A DNA stretch of 63,146 bases, counting the filler, from Rhabdomonas costata (taxonomy: Eukaryota): NCBI GenBank assembly GCA_019059605.1. It is 40 parts of 40 records of this genome, joined end to end, with 100 filler letters (N's around TTAATTAATTAA, not from the genome) between each part and the next. Parts side by side here need not be neighbours in the genome. Positions count along the whole stretch, not along the records: positions 18,983 to 20,463 come from JAHMHO010014824.1; 39 more parts are not named here. One strand, given 5' to 3'. The notes below the pieces were generated by a model that saw nothing but the letters and a program-made list of their open reading frames with translations, had not been told where the DNA came from and ran no database searches. Position numbers and translations under genes: made by a program. Shown piece after piece: positions 3,165 through 60,084 of the stretch (within the stretch, counting starts at the first letter, position 1; each line of letters starts with the position of its first letter).

Positions 3165-3360
3165 GATGCCCAAGATGACCCCTAGATGCCAAGATGCATG
3201 AGAGTACCCTAGATGACCCTCGGATGCCAAGATGCCAGCCAAGATGACCCCCAGTACCTCTAGATGCCAGAGATGCACCAGCTGACCCCTAGGCCAGCTG
3301 ACCCCCTGCACCAGAGTACCCTAGATGCCAAGGATGCACCGGTACCCTAGCTGCCAAGAG
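3165..3360 (+). repeat. Degenerate minisatellite built from GATGCCAA / GATGACCC / GTACCCTA units
   Basis: Repeated gatgccaagatg, gatgaccc and (a)gtaccctag blocks are directly visible. Confidence 0.75.
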
Positions 3361-3509
3361 ATGTTAGGACGCTCAGTGGCATTTGCTATCGACCCCTCGG
3401 TGAGGGGGGGGGGGCAGTACCCAAACTGCACCAATATGAAGGGGGTAGGTCATATGCCAGCAGGTAGGTCATATCCCATTCAGAACATCTGCAGTGATGT
3501 TCCAATTCA

Positions 3510-4420
<911 letters not shown>

Positions 4421-18400: not shown

Positions 18401-19035
18401 GTCATTTTGCATGACTCGAAAACATGTCCGAGAGGTACCTGGACGTTTTTTGTTGGTAACAAGCGCTGGAAGACAACCATGCCATGTCATGGTGAGCCCT
18501 TTCATCCGGAAGTAAAACCAGATGTTCATGTGCTTCACAAATTGCAGCACATAAGCCTGTAAAACCTGGCGGCTCATGGCGGTGTGATCCATCTTGCGCC
18601 ATCCTAGCCCAGTCCCTGTGCTGCCTTGACATAGTTGCTGAGAATGGCATGCCACTGATGCAAAAACCTGTCGCACACCATGTTGGACGTGCCAACTTCA
18701 GGTTCTGGGTGTTTTGTGTAAAAGTTTGTGTAGAGCAGGAAATTGCACGTGCGGAGGAGTAGTTGACATGCATATTTGTGGGCGAAATTGAACTTCAGGA
18801 AGTGCCTGTTCCTTGGTGGAGATCGTAGCCACTTGAATTATTTGATGCCACTACAAAGACCAATCTTTCCGCGAGGCGCCAANNNNNNNNNNNNNNNNNN
18901 NNNNNNNNNNNNNNNNNNNNNNNNNNTTAATTAATTAANNNNNNNNNNNNNNNNNNNNNNNNNNNNNNNNNNNNNNNNNNNNGGTTGGGGGTGTTTGTAT
19001 CCAGTGTCTTGGAGTGGACGATGGGGTGTGCATCT

Positions 19036-19962
19036 GAGGAAGCATTCGAAGACCTGAGAATGCTGACGTCGGAGTGAACGAACGGACCGACCTATGTCGG
19101 GGAGTGAGTGAACCACGCATTTAGGAGGGAGGAACGAAGTGACGACCGACAGCAATCAACTCCCCTTGCGGGCCCCATGACCATGAGCGCAGCGAATGGG
19201 CATGGGGATCAAGGCATCTTTGAGTTCTGCATTTAGGAGGAGATGCGACGAAGGAGCATCGACGACAGCAAGAACCCCACGAAGGCATGTCGAGGGTACC
19301 GAGGCATGCCGTAGTAGCGTATTCCACTGTCGGGATTCTCACGTCCTCTCGAATCCCTCATTCTTCTCTAGCACCGCAGGTAGGGTGAGCGTAACCGTGA
19401 AGCGGTGGAGCGAGCCATCAACAGAGGAAGCATTCGAGGCACCGAGAATGCTGACGTCGTGTGACCCAGTGAACGGAAGCACCTTAGGGTGGTGAAGTGA
19501 ACCACACGTAGAGGAGGGACTCGAGGTACCGAGAGTCACGACGTCATCAAGAGGAGGAACGTACCGACGTCAGTCGGGGAGTGACGACGACCAGCAAATA
19601 CTCCTCTTCTGAGTTCAGTGAACGTAGCCGGGTAGCGGCGGAGTGAACCACCATGCAGAGGAAGGATGCGAGGTACCGAGCATCCTGACGTCATTCAAAG
19701 AGGAACATGAGACATGACCGGAACGCAGTGAAGGGAATGTCGATTGTGACGTCGGAGGAACATGAGCGAGTGCAACGAAGCGATTGTGACGACCAAGGAA
19801 CGAGGAAGGAGCGTAGCGACGACCGAGAGACAGAACTCCAATGAATACCCCTACCCTTGATGAGAGACACGAACAGGAGGCACGAACAACGTGAGAGCCG
19901 AGTGTGAGAGTCGAACCTACCGAGGAACAGGAGACACGAGCATCGCGAGAGTCGAGTGTGAC
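19036..19962 (+). other. Array of about 20 covarying GA-mismatch/GNA-loop hairpins (structured single-stranded nucleic acid element)
   Basis: Repeated GAGGA-[stem]-GA-loop-GA-[stem']-GACGTC and GT-GA-AC-GNA-[stem]-loop-[stem']-GNA-GT-GA-AC modules. Stem sequences differ between copies but stay complementary; see findings. Confidence 0.85.
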
Positions 19963-22703
19963 ACTGTGACTCAGCTTGGCATCGCGGTTCTGTCCCTGCG
20001 GGGCCCTTACCCTTACACTCAACCCCACCACTATAGCCCTTAGACCATCGGAGTGTGGACGTGATGCTTTACCTTGATGCTGATGCGGTGTTGTCGGGGT
20101 GTTGGACTGCGCAAGGACTGACACACCGGTAAGAGTGATGCCCTGACACCGTACCACCACCACCAACGCTACCACCACCAACAGCAAGGCAAGCACAGAA
20201 CGCGTAGACCATTACTAATAGGGTAACACACCCTACGTTGATGGCATACAGGCCCTGTGTCCAACCTCGAAGCAGAGGGATAGGGTGTAGCATGTGTGTT
20301 ATGTGTAAGGTAAGAACGTAGAGGGTGGAACCAAGTGGAAGGGTCGGTACGCCCAAGCAGCAAGGAACCCGTCACCTCTAACGCCAACCCTACACATAGC
20401 CACCACGTGACTGTCTACTAACTGGGCAACCAAGCCCCAACGTTGGACAACCGCACCAAACAANNNNNNNNNNNNNNNNNNNNNNNNNNNNNNNNNNNNN
20501 NNNNNNNTTAATTAATTAANNNNNNNNNNNNNNNNNNNNNNNNNNNNNNNNNNNNNNNNNNNNTGGTGTACTTTTTTGGGCGGGAATTTAGACGGCTCCC
20601 AGCTGCCACGGTATACGGCTTTAACGTTCAAAATTTGTAGTTAACCACCTCAACGCCCCAACCTTTTTTTTTGGGAAGGCGCAGCTTACTGAGTATTCTC
20701 CTTCCGAAGTGTTTTAGGGGAGGGGTTGAGAAATCGCGAGAATTTTCAGAGTCGAGAGACAGAGAGAGAGAATACGACCGAATTCATTATATTGTCGACA
20801 TACGGGATTTGGTATGAATAGTTGACCCGCTAACGATCTGAAGTTCGGCGTGTGACTGCCAAACCTGCAGCCTGGCCACTGACCTTCCCGGTTGGTTTTC
20901 CGGAAGGCGCCCCGCATTCCGCACTCCTTTGACGGCCGTTGGGCGCTGCCGCGGCTTACCTAGGAAAAAATCTGGTACCTGGCTTTTGATTACCGTCCGC
21001 CGCCTTTCGCGGCCCGGGGGGGTTCCTTCGCGACTCCCGCTTTTTCTCGGTGACCTCGCGGTTGTGATTCTTTCTCCTCCTGCAGTAAAGGCACTCCTCA
21101 TTTCAGAAACCGAATCTCCTTCGGTCAAGCATCATCCCTTGCCCGGAAACAAAGGCCCCCACAACACTTACTTTCACCCACATTTTCCCCCTAACGAAAT
21201 TCCCTTTTTGGCCAAATGACCGTTCTGGCCATTCCCCTTGACCATTGCTACTGTCTTTTCCCTGCACAACACCCGCTGCCTTTTTCGTGCTTTATTCCCG
21301 CCTTTGGTTTCCTTTTGTACCGCTTTTCCCCCGCGGACCTTTTGGTCACTTGACCCTACCGGCTTGTTTTTAAATTTTACAAAACTAAAGGAAATTAAGT
21401 ATCCGTAAACCGGGCCCTGAGCCCAGTACGAGGTTCGGGGGCCCGAGCCCTCTCGAGTCGAGTCGAGTCGAGAAGAGAAGAGAAGAAAGCGTTGTTGCCA
21501 CAAGGGCGGAGATAAATCCTGTAGGTCTGTTGGTGGGTCTTCGGAATGAAGATGAAGAAGCGGTGCATTTGGATAAAGCCAGTGCCGAAATGGGAGCAGC
21601 TGGATGGGAAGAAAGTGGAGAACGAAGGCGAAGCAAGAGCAAGCACTTCTGACCGAGGTAAGTCGGGAAAAAGCACAACTCGAGTATATAACACCCTGCC
21701 CGGCAGAAAATCAAAGCGATAGAGGAAAATGGTAGAGAAGGCCGAACCGGAGAGAGAGAAGGCAAGAGATTGAAAGCTGTTTACCTATTTTACAGGTTAC
21801 AGCTAAAAGCTCGGCGGGGCGAGGCTAAAGCGAGGTAGAGGCGAGTCAGGGCTAAAAAGGTTGAGAGCTGAACCTTCTCACTTTCCCCTGTGCTGTGCTC
21901 TGGTGCCGTTCCCTTCTTGTTTGCCTTGTTTTTGGGTTGGAAGGGCGTAAGCGGACGGCTGGGTAGAGGCAAGACCTCCAGGACCCCACCTCCCAGCGGA
22001 ACACTCAAAAGCAAAGGCCTTTGAAACGAGCAGCCAACAAAACCCNNNNNNNNNNNNNNNNNNNNNNNNNNNNNNNNNNNNNNNNNNNNTTAATTAATTA
22101 ANNNNNNNNNNNNNNNNNNNNNNNNNNNNNNNNNNNNNNNNNNNNGGTGTGTGGGACTGCAGCGTTGGGTTCGTTTTGGTTTGAGGTGGCGAATTTCATA
22201 TTCTTCAATTGCGTTCGTTTTTGTTGACTTTTTGGAGGTTTGCCGAGCAAAAGAAATTGCTTTGGTTTTGAACTACTCAGTTTTGAACTTCGATCATCCC
22301 CACGATTGCTCTCCAGATTGGTTTCTGATTGTTTCTCACTGCCATTCCCCAGAAACGTCAGGCGTTTGCAATCATTCTGGGTGTCCTGTCTTCCCGAGCT
22401 CTAATCCCCTTGCACGAGGGCAAGATGCCGGATGGGGGCTAACGGGGGTACCCCTTCCCATCCGGCTCACAGCGGTATGTGCCAGCCTGCTTAGAAGCCA
22501 GCTGGATCATAACGTACCAATATATCTCCGATATCTCTCAAGTGTTGGACGAAATGGTCGCTGGCTGACAAGTCCATTTTTTTGCGATATCTTCGGCTTT
22601 GAATGGACGACATTGCCTGTGTACCTGTGTGTTCTTTGAAGCCTGCTTTTCTTTCGCTGGGCCATTTGTTCTCTCCGGGTCGGTTTCCTTCTTTTCCGTG
22701 CAA

Positions 22704-33665: not shown

Positions 33666-34879
33666 CTGAGATGGCAACCGGAGACAAGAAACTTGTTGAC
33701 TCCAAGGGCCATATGCAGACTGTATGAATGCTCGAAAAACCAGGGTTGAAGCAAAGCTAAGGTAAAATGAGGCAGCATCTCGACTGGGTTTATGTCTTGG
33801 ATTTCCTTCCCTGTGAAGTCACCGCTGTAGGAAACTGTCAAGCGGCGATTATTGGTCATCTCCTGGGTGGGTGAGATAAACGTATCCATGGCGATACTAC
33901 GTTTATGGATCGCAATAGTGCATGCATTGGTATGGTATGGCATGGTGTGGCTTCACAAGAAAAGTACATTTTGATGTGCAATCAAGAAACATGTCAAACA
34001 GAAACGCACCGAAGCAACGAGGAGAATAGATGTCCCATTTCAAATGTTCATTAAATGTTCATTTTCCCTTATTTTTCGCTATCAAGTCCGAAAAGATCGC
34101 TTTAGCAACACTTTTCTCAGTTCTGTGTTTTGAAGTGAAGAGGGCAATGTAATTATGGATCACAACAGCATAGTACCGTATGACAGGATATTGGTCAATG
34201 CGGCACGGTACGGTATGCACACGCTACATTGCCATGACCTTTCTCGGCGCGGTGGCGTGTGGCAATTTAGCATCCTTCAGCAGGGGTGTGACACTGACAT
34301 TGAATCTGGGTGTGTAATGGGAAAGGAAAGGCCACGGTATGGGTTTGATGAGGTCGCCTTGCATCGTGCCGTGCTTTCAGCCTAGACTCCACCGAGATGA
34401 TACATGGGCGGACAGTGGGGTGAGTTGAGAGCCAAAGCCCTCTGTCCTTGTGCCTGCGATTCGAGAGATGCGCTTGAGATGGGGTCAAAGGCATCGGATG
34501 CACAAGGGAATGCCAAAGTTAACTTAGCGAAGGCCTATGGGGTGAAGCTGCACTGCCGCAGTTTCGACCGTTCCGTTGCCTTCAAGGAAGCTCAGGGAAA
34601 GGAGCTGTGAGCGCTATGGTGCGTTTTGGAGAGGAGAGTGGGGGCTGACCCTTCATATTTTCCGGTGTGGGCTCAGGGCCACGAAACCCACCCACCNNNN
34701 NNNNNNNNNNNNNNNNNNNNNNNNNNNNNNNNNNNNNNNNTTAATTAATTAANNNNNNNNNNNNNNNNNNNNNNNNNNNNNNNNNNNNNNNNNNNNTTTG
34801 TTGGGGAGTCGGCAAAACCTCTGCCCCGTCCACCAAAGTTTTTGCCGACTCCGCAACTTCCATTGCTTCTTCATTGGAA

Positions 34880-36270
34880 TGACCTCAGATCTGGCGAATG
34901 TGCCCTCGCGGCGTTAATCTGTGACTGCTGTGGGGCAGTAAAAATTACACTCCTCGATGGAACTGTTGCTGCCAGAGTTGGTCCTGACGACGTCGCTGAA
35001 AAAGAATTCGGCACTCATGGCAATGAAACCAAAGCGCTTGCTCCACCAAACGAAAATCTCGGCACCACCTCTTTTCCTTTATCGGCCGGCGTGAGAAACG
35101 CCGTACTGCCAGAAAAAGGCGTGTATCCATAGGGCATCGCATCCAACTTAATGCCTGCCATCTCTGTTACCACCGGTTTTTGCAACGACGACTCGGTAAA
35201 TGCAACAACGACTTGTGGTGGGGGTCTAGGCTTCCGAAAGTAGTCTACCACACGCGCACCAACCTTGCTCTTCATCAAGCTTGAATTTGCAAATTTTTAT
35301 TGGTCTCTTCTCATGCAGGTCGTTGTTTTGGTTACTTTTCCATCAAATCCTCCAACCCGCAGTCTGTGTTTGGCACCGCTCGGATGTTCGTACTCTTCTA
35401 TTCTTGAGCAACGCACTTTTGAATGCATCTTACCTTCAATTAGCCCGTTGTTTTCTGAAACATGTGGAAGTTTTTCGACAATCTTTTGCTCGCACACACC
35501 GACCCCAACTTCTTTGTCTACGCCGGGGCGTTTGCCGCGCACCTCATCATTTCTTCCGTGTTGTTGGTAAGTCCAAAATCCTCTCTGGTTCCATCTCCAC
35601 ATCAATGGTTTGGAAAGGAGCTCTGTTGCCATTGGATCTCCAATACACCTGCTGCTTTCCTCAGGCGCTTCTCCATCTTTGGTTCCTCAGTTGCACTAGC
35701 TTTTCAACCTGACCTCTTCAGCGTTTGTTGGGCACACTGCAGTTGATCTGCTCTCTCTCAAGTGTATCCGCACCCTTTCTTCTGCTTATGGTCTCCTTGA
35801 TTCCTCTACTCGCACCTGCCTCCTTCCACGGAACATTTGGCGCTAAATTCTATTTGTATGTTTCTACTCCATCCGCTCACTCCACCGGAATCCATTCCAC
35901 CACCGATATGCATGCATTTGCTCTTTTGACATGTCTCCCATATTTCGCCCACCACATTCCTTTGACACCAGGAAGCGCGATCCCTCCTATGTGGACTCTC
36001 AACAGACGGCTGAGCTGTATGCTATCGTTCATGCTCTCCTGCAAGCCTCTCTGCGTAAGTTCTCTCACATTTGTCTTGTCACAGACAACTTCTCTGCATT
36101 CTTCTCCACAGTTCACGGCAGCTTCTCTGCGCCACTGGACGCGCGTTCGTATTCTTAGGCGCATTAATCGGATTTGCCTTTCTCACAATCTACAACTGCA
36201 ACTGGCGCTCACAAACTCACACAATAATCCGGCTGACCCACAATAATCCGGCTGACCACTTTTCCCCCAA
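34880..36270 (+). mobile_element. Degenerate tyrosine-recombinase (DIRS/Ngaro/VIPER-TATE-like) retrotransposon RT-RNase H
   Basis: Ordered motifs across frameshifts: LICDC..V; FIKLEFANFYWS; APLGCSYS; FFDNLLL (YxDD position); LLVSPKSSLVPS..WFGKE; then RNase H QQTAELYAIVHAL..LVTDN..NPADHFS. Confidence 0.75.
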
Positions 36271-36411
36271 CCCCCCCNNNNNNNNNNNNNNNNNNNNNNN
36301 NNNNNNNNNNNNNNNNNNNNNTTAATTAATTAANNNNNNNNNNNNNNNNNNNNNNNNNNNNNNNNNNNNNNNNNNNNTGGGGTGTGTTTGGGTGGGGGGG
36401 GTGGCGCTAAC

Positions 36412-37843: not shown

Positions 37844-38619
37844 CTGAAACCCAACCCCNNNNNNNNNNNNNNNNNNNNNNNNNNNNNNNNNNNNNNNNNN
37901 NNTTAATTAATTAANNNNNNNNNNNNNNNNNNNNNNNNNNNNNNNNNNNNNNNNNNNNGTTGTGTGGTACTCCCCTCGAAGCTAAAAGGTCCAGCGCATT
38001 TTTTAGCTCCGAAGTCCACAAAATGACAAATTTATAGTGCCTTTTTCGGTTGTGATTCCTTGAGGTGAGGCAGAAAATATTTCCTGCTTCACTTCAAAAC
38101 TGAGAGGTTAAAAAACGTTTCCAAAAAGTGGACATTTCGGACTTACAGAGGTTTTTATATGGGAGATTTCGTTTTTCACCCTTATTTTCATAATGAAATG
38201 CACCTATGGCAGCTTTTTTTTTCAAATTTGTGTGGGGTGCATTGGGCGCCGTTTTTATCGCAGAAAAACACCTATGCTTCGAAGAATTCCCCATATTTTG
38301 CTGACAGTCGTTTCTTTTAGGCAATTGAAGGTAGACTTTCATTTTTATGTGCTTTTTTCGTCAAAGTCTAGTCTGTTTGATGTGGGTGGGTGGGTAACTC
38401 ACTTTTGAGGTGAGGGTTTTTTCTCAAGACAGGAATTTTTCCAAAAAAAAACGAACGCAATGTTTCGCCCCCCCCCCCCACCTGGAGATGTACACGCTGA
38501 GGCATACACTATCGACCTCACCGGGAAGACCGGCTCTCCCTCTTGCAAATTCTTCATATCAGCTTTGTACGTATAAAAGCGGAAGTGGTGGGCAAATGAT
38601 ATAGAGCAGTGCCCCGAAC

Positions 38620-39379
38620 CGGCTCCACATCCTCCAGAAAGCACTTCAGCTGGGTTTCCGTGGGGTTAATGTTCAGCGAGCGGATGATCGTGCCAAGCTC
38701 GCGCTTGTCACACAGCCCGCTGTTGTCACGCTCAAATAGCATGAAGGCCTGAGAGGTAACATGGACTTGACGCCATGCCCGAAATGCAAGTCAGGGGGGG
38801 GGGACGGCATTCAGGAGAGGCATGCCAATATCTACAGCGTATTTGGCCATTTCTACAACACTGAGAATAGCCTGCGAGCAGGCTTTCAAAACGCTCTCAC
38901 TGACCATTTGCGTAGGCCCCACTTTTCAGCAAAACCCAGCCGAAGAGAGCAGAAGAAATATAGGACGGGCATGGGGAGCATCTCCTTCAACAGGCGTCGA
39001 CAGTAATTTTCTCTCCAGGTATTCAATTGGATTGAAGTAATTTCCGAAACGTTCGCCGGAAAACTGAAAATAGGTACCCAGAGCAATACCCCGGCCTTGG
39101 GAATCCCGCCAGAAATGGGCGTGACGCACGGATACATTTGGGGCTGGAGTTGGGAAGCATGCTGACCCGAAAAAGCCACTGAAAACCGGAAGAACGCACC
39201 TCACGGATCCTCTTGGTGAGCATCTCCCGGCGCTTCTCCCGGGCCAGCGGGGTGACATAGAACATCTCATCGATGAGCTCGTCCGGGGTGGCCTCCGAGG
39301 GCCCACCCTTCTTGCCCTTCTTGGGCTTCCCCTTCGAGGCATCGCCCTCCTTGCCCTTGCCCTTCGCCTTTGGGGGCAT
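38620..39379 (-). CDS. EFCAB2: EF-hand protein, dynein regulatory complex subunit DRC8/EFCAB2-like (5' part, 2 exons)
   Basis: Exons 39379-39200 (MPPKAKGK..KRIRE) and 38748-38620 (AFMLFERDNSGLCDKRELGTIIRSLNINPTETQL). GT-AG phase-0 intron. Confidence 0.75.
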
Positions 39380-40091
39380 TCCCACAAAACACCCGAAGCC
39401 AACACACCACCATCCAAGAACGCGGCAACGTAAACGCATNNNNNNNNNNNNNNNNNNNNNNNNNNNNNNNNNNNNNNNNNNNNTTAATTAATTAANNNNN
39501 NNNNNNNNNNNNNNNNNNNNNNNNNNNNNNNNNNNNNNNTGTGGTGGGGGTAAGGGGAGCAAGAAGCCACTGGGGAGAAACTAGACCCAGATCGTGGGTG
39601 CGCAGTGCACCACAGCAATGCATAGCTCTGTGAAAAGAAGGTTTGTGTGTGCGCATGTGTGTGGGGGTGAGTAAAGGCCATGCACCATGACCACCATGAC
39701 AATCCTATAGTCATCTGATCAGTGAGTGCACGGAGATGTAAGAGTTCAATGTTGGAATAAATCAATCCACGCAGACGTATCCACACACAGCGCAAAAAGC
39801 AGTGTTGCAGATACTTGCGGTCGACAGCACTGTACAAAGATGCACAGACAGTTTCCTCAGAAACGGTCTTTGCACCATCACAACACAAAATTGAGTCCGC
39901 TGCGACACCAGGAAGAGACGGCCTCCGCACCAGCAAACATTTTTTAAAAACAACAGCGTGCAGGGGGAGCCTGCATTCCTTTCTTCGTTCCAGGAAGGAC
40001 ACAAAAACCAAAATAAAAGATATGCCACTAAAATGCCTGGAAAATATTGGTGTCCCCACGCCCGCATAACCCCACCCGAAGCTGCGAAGGA

Positions 40092-57665: not shown

Positions 57666-60084
57666 GCAAAGGCTTCCAGTGGTCCAGAATCCGAGTGCGG
57701 TGTCTTGGCAAAATGATATTTCTCATATGCAGCCTCCTCCATCATGAAGATGTGTTTGCATGACCGAGCGCGTGTTTGTGTCGTGTTGATACATGTCTGT
57801 GGGAAGGGTAACATTGTACGTCCCGCTGTGGTGCTTGGTATGGTTCTTGACCTATGGTTTTGGTGGCAATGATGTGCCTTGTTGCTGATCTCGGGTCTCA
57901 TTCGAGCGGAAATCCCCCAAAACTGACATGGATGAGAACTAAGTGCAAACCGGCGTCCATCCTTTCTAACTTCTTCCAGGCCACAGCACCCGGGCGGCAA
58001 TCACTCCGAGACGTGCTTTACAGCAGGTTATAGTAGAAACCATGCAATCCCCCGCCGTTTCAAAGCATCCTTGCCGCGCATTCCTAACGCTAACACGCAG
58101 TTACCTTCCCACCACAAAAGGCAGTGTGCCAAGACATCAACTTCATCACTGTTGCCAGCACGCGCAATAGGCGTGACCTCATTTCCGGTTCGTCGCCGTG
58201 GGGAAGAAAGGGGGGCTGCCACAAAATATAAATGATTAAAATAAGACTGGAATTTGTGTGGGATGAGCATGTGACATGTGTTTGTGTGTTATTGGTTTCC
58301 GCGCTGGAAGTGGCGCGGGTTTCCCTTGTCCGCCGAAAGCGCCGAACATTCGCGGAATGAAAATGAGGATGTGCAAGTCAGAAAGCGTGCGCAAAAAAAC
58401 CACNNNNNNNNNNNNNNNNNNNNNNNNNNNNNNNNNNNNNNNNNNNNTTAATTAATTAANNNNNNNNNNNNNNNNNNNNNNNNNNNNNNNNNNNNNNNNN
58501 NNNGTGGTGGGTGTGTTTGGTGGTGGTGGGGACAGCAGCCACGTGCCGCGAGCTCAATTCAAAAAATCTTCTCAAGTGCAATGCAATTTTTTGTCACTCC
58601 CACATTCCCTCTCCTGTTTCAGTTTTTGTGTTTACATTTGTGTTTGTGTTTTACAGCCTTTGTTTCTTTTTTTTTTACCTAGTTTTCCCTTACAGATCTC
58701 TCTCGCGTTCCTTCTTGTAATTGTTTGCATTGATGTTAGATGGTGTTGCACCATCGACGCTGGGCACCACAGGTCCGAGTACACCAAGTGGCCACCGTTG
58801 CAGCTGGAAGCTGCCAGTGTGCTATTGTCGACGTGGAAGAGGAGAGAGAGTCAAGACTGTGGGGGACCTACCGCTCAACCCAGCTGCCGTCCGCCCACCT
58901 GTGTGCCATTTTTAGGGCTTCCTGAGGCTTCTATCAATTTGCTCCGGAACATGGTGTTCATGTGCTTGAAGAGACACATGAGGTTTTTTGTTGGAGGACA
59001 AGCCTACAGCGCGGTTTTGAACGTCATCAGACCTTAACGTTTAACACAAGTACGTCGTCTGCTTTGCTGAAGCCTGCACAGCGCTCACTCTTACCTTCTG
59101 CTGTGGAGCAATGATGTTTAACTTTTTTTTAAAGTACCCAAAAAAGTACCCAGTCTCGGCATTCGATTAGGGAACTGGTTAGCGCGAGTGTTGATAAGAA
59201 TGGCAGGCATCATCAACTGTCGATGCTGTATGCTTGCTCTTGAGCGTGTGTTAGTATACAGTTCCTGGACGAATGCTCGACCCACTCTTTCACCAGGGGT
59301 TTGGGCTTCATCACATCATGTATAAGTGTGCATATGCGTGTTATATAACATAGTAGTGGTAGTCTGTGTCGAAGCCCGGTGGGTTCCGACTGGGCGCCGT
59401 CGGGGCAGAGCGTGCACTGCACGACTGGGGGGGGGGGAAGGCGGTGATGACGGAGGGAAGGCTCTGTCCTGCTCGCCCAGGCTCGGGCCACCAGCGAAGG
59501 GCGAAGTGGCGCAAAGATGCCCTTCGCCCATTTACAAATCACGTCACACCCAACAGAGCTAGTTCACAACGGCTTCCGCCAATGCACACAAATAGGAAGA
59601 CCTCCAACTGTCCCAGAAATCCTGTGGTATGCGTTGCCGACTAGCGGGAGGCCCGTTTGTCTGACCTTAGGAGCCTGTGTTCCGTAAACCCACGCGGAAA
59701 TTCCGATGCCCTTGCGATTCTGAGGCCAGTTCTGAGAGATGCGCCTTCATTGTATGCGTGCACTCAGAGCGACGCCCCCACCCAGGGATGCGCATCCAGT
59801 GTCAGAGAGAGTGTCCACAAGACAAAGGCCACAAACGCATAACCCAGAAGCCAAAAATAAATACCTACACCCACAAGTCCACGTTCAGTTATATTCACAG
59901 CACTAAGGCCATTACCAATACGTACGCACAATACAGAAGCCTTCACTCAGTCCACATCCTATACCCTTACTCACACAACACAAANNNNNNNNNNNNNNNN
60001 NNNNNNNNNNNNNNNNNNNNNNNNNNNNTTAATTAATTAANNNNNNNNNNNNNNNNNNNNNNNNNNNNNNNNNNNNNNNNNNNN

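Follow-up and report, generated by a model that had tools for sequence, protein, structure and literature searches.

A covarying row of G·A-zipped hairpins on one strand of a Rhabdomonas costata contig, possibly a folded single-stranded DNA

Why should one strand of a non-coding stretch of DNA be kept foldable, over more than 900 nucleotides, into small hairpins that all differ from one another, and in which molecule would they fold? The question is raised by positions 19036-19962 of the 63,146-nucleotide stretch of Rhabdomonas costata DNA (GenBank assembly GCA_019059605.1) that was analysed here as a whole and is called the window. A first-pass annotation, made from the sequence alone, had seen in this interval a series of adjacent hairpins on the plus (+) strand, short Watson-Crick (WC) blocks alternating with G·A oppositions, and had proposed a new folded single-stranded DNA element, with the control region of a replicon, a mobile-element or viral terminus, a centromere-like fold-back and a protein-docking scaffold as candidate roles. 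We find that the hairpin array is real and far beyond chance, and the evidence supports selection on a strand-specific fold; that the fold acts as single-stranded DNA is the reading we tentatively prefer. As a stretch of genome the interval has to be redrawn: the array stands, but it is no free-standing locus, being part of one 1481-bp piece (18983-20463) among the 40 unrelated pieces of the window. These measure 1475-1484 bp, are apparently sorted by length and are joined by linkers of the form N44-TTAATTAATTAA-N44, and because neighbouring pieces are unrelated, the window gives no genomic context for the array.

A hairpin array on one strand

Hairpins were called with an ungapped scorer (loop 2-8 nt; WC pairs +2, G·A +1, other mismatches -3) and a greedy choice of non-overlapping hits. 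At a score of at least 14, the + strand of 19036-19962 gives 17 hairpins that occupy 614 of 927 nt with a total score of 382, as against 4.3±1.7 hairpins and a total of 68±28 in dinucleotide shuffles, the control that the first-pass annotation had itself named; none of 200 shuffles reached the observed values (z of the total score ~11). At a score of at least 16 there are 16 hairpins, and shuffles that preserve trinucleotides (2.3 hairpins), preserve tetranucleotides (2.3) or are confined to 60-nt blocks (2.0) never reached this number in 200 trials each (z = 12.6-13.3). A natural control agrees, since at the same threshold the other 39 contigs carry 0-6 hairpins per strand (78 contig-strands), compared with the 16 on the + strand of the array contig. 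All 18 hairpins listed from the sequence were recovered to within a few bases, 17 by the scorer and the one at 19755-19793 by RNA folding, its loop being longer than the scorer admits, so that we speak below of 18 modules but of 17 scored hairpins. Two of the listed intervals, 19808-19820 and 19871-19907, are the inner parts of longer hairpins at 19797-19831 and 19862-19916, and the two worked examples, 19124-19150 and 19711-19741, parse exactly as they had been written. The modules are 27-55 nt long, all different, and in places only 0-8 nt apart. Within the hairpin region Tandem Repeats Finder detected nothing more repetitive than 1.9 copies of a 13-nt unit (an ACC run was also found), the direct-repeat families of the contig are irregularly spaced, and its longest inverted repeat is 20 nt at 80%.

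Hairpins restricted to WC pairs are barely enriched (5 versus 1.5 at score 12, 7 versus 5.5 at score 10, and 1 versus 0.4 at score 14), and the excess thus resides in the G·A-containing architecture. When one class of mismatch at a time was allowed (100 shuffles), G·A gave a z of 10.2, compared with 1.1 for A·A plus G·G, -0.3 for G·T, -0.3 for A·C and 2.2 for C·T; the A·A plus G·G class is as frequent as G·A, yet it gives no excess. Together the 17 hairpins contain 170 WC cells, 93 G·A cells and 17 others (6 A·A, 5 T·G, 4 G·G, 1 T·T, 1 A·C), and their tandem mismatches between WC pairs read 5'-GA/5'-GA in 30 cases and AG/AG in none. Over the whole array, WC-GA/GA-WC arrangements within 60 nt number 107 versus 55±8 in shuffles (0/200 reach the observed count), whereas WC-AG/AG-WC arrangements number 23 versus 21±6. 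The 5'-GA/5'-GA orientation is that of sheared tandem pairs, so that a sheared geometry is presumable here, and 14 of the 30 tandems stand between a pyrimidine and a purine on both arms (CGAG, CGAA/TGAG, TGAA).

Other building blocks recur as well. The 17 hairpins also hold four loops of G-N-A opposite G-N-A, besides several 3x3 purine loops, and these GNA/GNA loops correspond to "zipper" motifs solved for human satellite III (PMC11014236). Their apical loops are GAA, GCA and GTA (two each, five of the six closed by C-G), AAC, ATC, four 2-nt tips in GGYACC-like centres, the tetraloops CTAT, TTAG and GTCA, and two 5-nt loops that include GAA or GTA; no GNRA or UNCG apical loop occurs among the 17. 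GNA triloops with two closing WC pairs are found 15 times (six closed by C-G) versus 4.9±2.1 in shuffles, with 0/500 reaching the observed number. A module, then, is made of WC blocks of 1-7 bp, 5'-GA/5'-GA tandems, some "zipper" loops and often a C-G-closed GNA triloop, and 11 of the 18 start with G-GA and end with GA-C.

That only one strand can fold in this way had been anticipated, and the counts bear it out: the complementary strand has 2 hairpins versus 16 (score of at least 16), 3 GNA motifs versus 15 and 4 GA tandem arrangements versus 107, and folding of the whole region with RNA parameters gives a z of -2.05 on the + strand as against -0.44 on the minus (-) strand (20 shuffles each, a coarse measure). 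The + strand of the array is 61% purine and holds 132 GA dinucleotides. The region is non-coding. Its + frames are full of stops (14-16 each), the period-3 ratio of 1.9 lies below the median of the other contigs and amounts to no period-3 signal, Pfam found nothing at E<=0.01 or near a cut-off in seven open reading frames (ORFs) from both strands (best E 0.036 and 0.27), and a protein-database search with the longest ORF (198 aa, - strand) found no relative, so that a protein-coding repeat was rejected. Nor was a tRNA found.

The stems change in sequence and remain paired. Four 35-nt copies of one module type (type A, beginning at 19036, 19424, 19511 and 19658 and numbered A1 to A4) align without gaps, and both sides have changed in five of the ten WC pairs, with 39 of 40 cells paired and G·A as the lone exception; none of the eight GA positions varies, nor does either flank, and none of 500 shuffles reached the observed values. 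When the partner was slid by 1-3 columns, pairing fell to 25-50% and almost no double changes remained. Between A1 and A2, 4 of 35 columns differ, namely one compensatory pair and both tip bases; the remaining 31 are identical, and upstream of the two copies only about 9 of 20 bases match, so that the modules behave as units of constraint or of copying. A second comparison gives the same picture: over 43 nt, modules D3 (19868-19910) and D4 (19922-19964) differ at nine positions, eight of which form four compensatory pairs (C-G to G-C twice, G-C to A-T, and A-T to G-C) with no pair broken, the ninth being the middle base of the loop. With nine substitutions placed at random in simulation, the probability of four or more compensatory pairs is ~1e-6 and that of no broken pair 0.0016. 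All nine covarying pairs of the type A and D3/D4 comparisons pass from one WC pair to another, and among the 62 cells of both families none is G·T. These alignments agree with the earlier remark that paired bases differ between copies at fixed GA positions. Compensatory change in two families, invariant GA positions beside variable stems, and strand asymmetry together support selection on a strand-specific fold, as the first-pass annotation had suggested.

Modules, linkers and flanks of the contig

All modules and linkers lie on the + strand. From its base, A1 (19036-19070) consists of a G-C pair, a GA/GA tandem, 7 WC pairs, a second GA/GA tandem, 2 WC pairs and a 2-nt tip; A2 (19424-19458) is a further type-A copy, A3 (19511-19545) differs from both by compensatory changes in the stem, and the stem of A4 (19658-19692; z = -3.35 with RNA parameters) is altered again by such changes. 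A related module at 19279-19315 (z = -3.68, RNA parameters) has a GGCATG/CATGCC stem, a T·G opposition, a GA/GA tandem, a GG/CC block and a GTA triloop. A kissing-loop role for the GGTACC tips was considered and rejected, only two of the four type-A tips being palindromic. The B modules share a GTGAAC...GTGAAC frame: B1 (19070-19117) has 13 WC pairs, 7 G·A cells and the loop CTAT, and the inner stems read CCGAC/GTCGG in B1, CACC/GGTG in B2 (19469-19502) and GCCG/CGGC in B3 (19618-19648). They were left out of the covariation count because their alignment is ambiguous. A hybrid of the C and B types at 19553-19588 has the inner stem of B1 and the loop GTCA.

The C modules are C1 (19124-19150; 6 WC pairs, 3 GA/GA tandems, C[GAA]G triloop), C2 (19236-19266; 8 WC pairs, 3 GA/GA tandems, C[GAA]G triloop, z = -4.55 with RNA parameters) and C3 (19797-19831; 7 WC pairs, 7 G·A cells, C[GTA]G triloop). 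C1 is followed by a pyrimidine-containing linker outside the hairpins (19151-19172), and this and the other linkers after C-type hairpins (19267-19278, 19589-19617 and 19832-19861) share a loose AGCAA...ACTCC motif; some of them have pyrimidine tracts followed by AG, the sole pyrimidine-rich bits noted among the linkers of the array. Among the D modules, D1 (19702-19750) has 13 WC pairs, a C[GCA]G triloop and 9 G·A cells, some of them in a 3x3 loop of GGA/GAA, D2 (19755-19793) has the outer frame of D1 and a weak inner part (z = -0.09, RNA parameters), D3 extends over 19862-19916 around its 43-nt core, and D4 ends the row. Beside a GA tandem, D1 and D2 have a T·T mismatch (19706/19745 and 19761/19785) where D3 and D4 have G·G (19876/19902 and 19930/19956), a site at which both arms have changed together though unpaired. 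Module E (19173-19207) combines 13 WC pairs with a single G·A, a GA/GA tandem and a C[GCA]G triloop; of the individual hairpins it is the strongest (z = -3.9 with DNA parameters and -3.8 with RNA parameters). Module G (19382-19418), with 9 WC pairs, 5 G·A cells and the loop TGAAG, in which T·G closes a GAA triloop, follows a T/C-rich spacer (19316-19381), the longest non-hairpin stretch inside the array.

Most of the 40 contigs begin with G/T-only heads and end with C/A-only tails (for example 36378-36400, 58504-58530, 47444 onwards and the end of 34797-36277), which we take to be remnants of degenerate whole-genome-amplification primers; the first or last 10-30 bases of such termini should not be taken as genomic sequence. 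The array contig has a G/T-only, primer-like start of this kind, and the rest of its head (18983-19035, + strand) resembles the 3' arm of another hairpin of the B type (GGAGTGGAC), so that the array probably continues past the 5' end of the contig. The 3' flank (19963-20463) is A/C-rich and without zipper hairpins, with an ACC-like run at 20153-20180 and a C/A-only tail that looks primer-derived. Pairing of the array with this flank was considered as well; the gain on joining, -18.0 versus -10.2±4.4 kcal/mol, is not convincing.

The GC content is 0.55-0.56 throughout the contig, which is an outlier in dinucleotide composition. The distance delta* of a 488-nt flank to the other contigs pooled is 0.288 versus 0.103±0.035 for pieces of the same size, none of which is that high, and the distance of the whole contig is 0.197 versus a maximum of 0.174 among the other 39. 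In the flank (19963-20450), observed/expected ratios are 1.12 for TA (0.53 in the other contigs), 1.49 for AC/GT (0.92) and 0.84 for AA/TT (1.27). That the contig comes from a different compartment or replicon is only hinted at by this, the flank being short and of low complexity, and its odd signature may reflect either low complexity or a different compartment.

Two observations concern other contigs of the window. The second-highest count of G·A-allowing hairpins falls in 37959-39439 on the - strand (6 hairpins, 214 nt), which are irregular and without the GA/GA zipper pattern. A PRMT-like arginine methyltransferase is represented by two exons, with GT-AG introns, at 3894-4034 (-) and ~4330-4420 (-); the best protein match is at 79% and the named matches are plant and algal PRMT10-like proteins, and the same contig carries at 3165-3400 a satellite-like run of imperfect ~13-20-nt repeats that are variants of GCATCTAGGGTAC. 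A dinoflagellate spliced-leader motif does not occur in the window, a negative that carries no information at a length of 63 kb.

Which molecule folds

We read the purine-rich + strand of 19036-19962 as a succession of small hairpins, 18 or more and all different, kept foldable by selection and acting as single-stranded DNA, and give this reading a probability of roughly 0.4. One could envision that the duplex opens within an R-loop or transcription bubble, or when a small replicon or that of an organelle is replicated or undergoes strand displacement, upon which the purine strand would collapse into a row of compact mini-hairpins and the pyrimidine strand, with its C·T oppositions, would stay open. 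Such a row might mark out one strand, as a signal for priming or of origin type comparable to the hairpins of single-strand origins, or alternatively it might offer a series of docking sites to a protein that recognises the conserved purine stacks. Because the G·A and G-GA...GA-C bases are fixed beside variable stems, the non-canonical parts may be what is recognised, and the stems may be kept mutually different so that neighbours do not mispair. In its fullest form, as a dedicated DNA-level element of the eukaryote or of a resident small replicon, a row of at least 18 orthogonal mini-hairpins shaped by selection and existing only when the duplex is opened, the proposal appears to us less likely than not.

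We infer DNA, and not RNA, as the molecule that folds, just as we infer every function proposed for it, and the lean is indirect, drawn from the kinds of loop, the route of stem change and the composition. Six of the 17 apical loops are GNA triloops (five of them C-G-closed), two more have GAA or GTA within 5-nt loops, four are 2-nt tips, GNRA and UNCG loops are missing, the covarying stems lack G·T intermediates, and the contig is a composition outlier. The DNA hairpin d(GCGAAGC) melts at 76.5 °C, compared with 39 °C for its RNA tetraloop version r(GCGAAAGC), and such mini-hairpins occur in the single-strand replication origins of phage G4 and in ssiA (PMC13037366); their stability depends on the closing pair (PMC3201870).

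Several findings weigh against this reading. The covariation comes entirely from paralogous copies on a single 1.5-kb contig, and no orthologue was found in the collections searched. Just over half of the GA tandems (16 of 30) lie in mixed R-GA-R/Y-GA-Y contexts (GGAA/TGAC, GGAG/CGAC) of uncertain stability, and C1, C3 and D2, in which only single WC pairs stand between GA tandems, are weak in both the DNA and the RNA model. A DNA parameter set mostly finds only the longest WC block of a module (mean z about -1.0), and for the whole region it gives a z of -0.41 on the + strand and -0.45 on the - strand; we think that it misses the zipper for want of G·A terms. With RNA (Turner) parameters, which include measured tandem-G·A terms, the minimum free energy structure of all 18 modules is a single hairpin with symmetric purine internal loops, and module z averages -2.1, is negative in 17 of 18 and is at or below -2 in 8 of 18. 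Some 16 of these 18 folds match the zipper nearly pair for pair, the exceptions being the tip of 19036 and the module at 19862. Stable single-stranded DNA is, moreover, rare in eukaryotic nuclei, so the prior favours RNA. Of the folded single-stranded DNA element first proposed, the structure has thus held up, single-stranded DNA is its tentatively preferred identity, and the fact that an RNA model folds all 18 modules makes RNA a live alternative.

In that case the + strand would be transcribed and the same selected fold would act as some 18 hairpins of a long structured non-coding RNA or an untranslated region, the 2x2 G·A internal loops and conserved G-GA...GA-C bases providing repeated docking sites on a tandem-hairpin scaffold for an RNA-binding protein. 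We consider this only slightly less likely than DNA. Transcription is the commonest route by which one strand of nuclear DNA comes to stand alone, covariation is the classical mark of structured RNA, five T·G oppositions lie inside the hairpins, and both the Turner folds of the modules and the strand difference in RNA-model z (-2.05 versus -0.44) are as an RNA would have them. The loops speak otherwise, in that none of the 17 is GNRA or UNCG and triloops and 2-nt tips dominate, the latter being disallowed in RNA models; the 62 cells of the covarying families include no G·U intermediate, no Rfam family matches within the array even at E<=10, and a k-turn is contradicted by symmetric purine loops and the lack of a canonical C box.

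The array might, less probably, be a set of mini-hairpin repeats, selfish or generated by repair, that swell a non-nuclear genome without a function for the host, their pairing kept by the propagation of the elements themselves or by hairpin-templated correction. We regard this as improbable, though it has precedents: small G+C-rich inverted repeats fill the non-coding mitochondrial DNA (mtDNA) of Crypthecodinium and Karlodinium (PMC2151934; PMC3268668), and GC-rich palindromic repeats make up organelle DNA of ~50% GC in Haematococcus and Stephanosphaera (PMC7235400). Both the outlying composition of the flank (delta* 0.288 versus 0.103±0.035) and the likeness of A1 to A2 (31 of 35 positions, against ~9 of 20 bases upstream) would suit it. 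Organelle repeats, however, are near-identical WC palindromes that either strand can fold, and here the stems covary and one strand folds. Correction on a hairpin template would also do away with G·A mismatches, whereas the orientation is the same in all 30 tandems. Neither an organellar gene nor an rRNA fragment is present on the contig, its GC is 0.55 throughout, and the other 39 contigs hold no second copy.

That low-complexity DNA rich in purines, for instance triplet runs of the GGA/CGA type in decay, gave rise to the pattern neutrally is largely refuted and very unlikely. The strand is indeed purine-rich and full of GA dinucleotides, C1 and C3 approach (GGA)n opposite (CGA)n, their WC pairs being single, and shuffled purine-rich controls still form 4.3 hairpins at score 14, but null models up to the tetranucleotide-preserving one never came near the observed counts, the equally frequent A·A plus G·G class shows no excess, the compensatory changes are significant, and there is neither a tandem period nor a period-3 signal. 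An artefact of whole-genome amplification, assembly or contaminating synthetic DNA is the least credible explanation of all, for although the G/T heads and C/A tails point to an amplified library and the assembly is highly fragmented, amplification chimeras are long perfect inverted duplications rather than 18 different hairpins of 27-55 nt with fixed G·A and covarying stems, the longest inverted repeat of the contig is the imperfect 20-nt one, and nothing in plasmid or phage collections matches.

Whichever molecule folds, covariation, an accepted mark of functional RNA structure, appears here in a fold whose blocks are familiar chiefly from fold-back satellites and the biophysics of DNA. With DNA as the folding molecule, the array would show from nature that an elaborate non-B fold of a single strand can be maintained by selection across almost 1 kb, and it would offer some 18 natural sequence variants for G·A thermodynamics; as the dedicated element of the fullest proposal above, it would represent a new class of strand-specific signal (an origin or priming site, a recombination or termination landmark, or a site of protein docking) whose stems covary as in structured RNAs. 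If it is RNA, it would be an unusual tandem-hairpin scaffold without an Rfam relative. In either case modules of 27-55 nt are small enough for direct melting, NMR and pull-down work.

Comparison with known systems

The earlier statement that no named family matches agrees with our Rfam and literature searches. At the gathering score Rfam has no match in the window, and at E<=10 there are two weak ones on the contig, both in the flank at 20076-20167, far below gathering and outside the array. No description of a covarying G·A-zipped hairpin array was found in full-text literature, a search whose scope lay mostly outside subscription journals. A 33-nt degenerate type-A pattern has no match in metagenome contigs or in prokaryotic genome contigs, and a looser one occurs in two viral contigs, with one hairpin each and no array, which by a rough, uncomputed estimate is about what chance would give. 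Scans of metagenome, viral and prokaryotic collections with translated ORFs found no relative, blastn against phage and plasmid collections found no match, and no further copy of the modules lies in the other 39 contigs; as these searches covered only metagenome, viral, prokaryotic, phage and plasmid collections, they say little about distribution.

Among RNAs, helices with tandem G·A 2x2 loops resemble the array in their WC-flanked 5'-GA/5'-GA tandems, which are stabilising in the RNA model, and we know of no RNA family with some 18 such hairpins in a row. A k-turn has an asymmetric bulge beside tandem G·A, and box C/D RNAs carry a C box, RTGATGA, and a D box, CTGA; the array has loops that are symmetric 2x2 or 3x3, no asymmetric 3-nt bulge and 0 RTGATGA C boxes. 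A snoRNA cluster, a k-turn and a SECIS element were accordingly rejected, Rfam having no match in the array. Amoebophrya-type introners were rejected as well: their hairpins bound intron ends and do not form arrays, and the 0-8-nt gaps seen here leave no exons.

Organelle genomes offer a likeness of another kind, non-coding DNA dense in small hairpin-capable repeats at a GC content unusually high for an organelle. Those repeats are WC palindromes, mostly near-identical and foldable on either strand, or else kilobases long with genes, and the accounts of them that we compared, as far as these go, describe none with fixed G·A or covarying stems. For dinophycean mtDNA, inverted repeats were defined as longer than 6 nt, at most 5 nt apart and closely spaced (PMC2151934); WC-only hairpins in the array are mildly enriched at score 12 (5 versus 1.5) and not enriched at score 10 or 14. 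No ORF, Pfam or Rfam signal of cox1, cob, cox3 or rRNA fragments was found on the contig, a weak negative with 1.5 kb in view. The GC-rich palindromic repeats of green algae were rejected as a model since the stems of the array differ, only its + strand folds, and the other 39 contigs hold no copy; the palindromes of Leontynka-type plastomes, described as sequence-identical and present on both strands, are likewise unlike it. A purine skew of the Haematococcus plastome found no support in PMC6205361. The hairpin chromosomes of Cladophorales are single-stranded and 1-7 kb long, with a near-perfect inverted repeat on the kilobase scale and usually a plastid gene (10.1101/145037), whereas the longest inverted pair here is 20 nt at 80% and no plastid gene is present, and this candidate too was set aside.

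A further comparison is with short hairpins that are read or moved as single strands. The REP/REPIN hairpins of bacteria are said to be mobilised as single-stranded DNA by RAYT and reportedly are short, imperfect and read on one DNA strand, with their pairing preserved. They are bacterial, however, with a conserved head sequence and many near-identical copies, and the array contig has no prokaryotic relative in the collections searched. Single-strand origins of phages and plasmids consist of one to three hairpins, whereas the array extends over at least 930 nt, is eukaryote-associated and shares its contig with no replicon genes. The d(GCGNAGC) DNA mini-hairpins, whose GNA triloops are closed by C-G and have a sheared G·A, are like it in these loops. 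Their stability in DNA far exceeds that in RNA, and they function solely in single-stranded form (PMC13037366; PMC3201870).

With the fold-back satellites the array has its chemistry in common. The G strand of the Drosophila dodeca-satellite is reportedly a fold-back purine strand of a centromeric satellite. In human satellite III, (ATGGA/TGGAA)n, one strand alone folds, by WC pairs that alternate with sheared G·A pairs and with intercalation of the G·G or "zipper" kind (PMC11014236). The corresponding sequence pattern is present in the array, with its 30 GA/GA and no AG/AG tandems, although sheared geometry as such is not demonstrable in silico. Fold-back satellites are nevertheless built of homogeneous short tandem units, and here the modules are 27-55 nt long, all different and covarying, without a tandem period. 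We thus file the array outside every named family, as a purine-strand fold built on putatively sheared G·A pairs whose stems covary.

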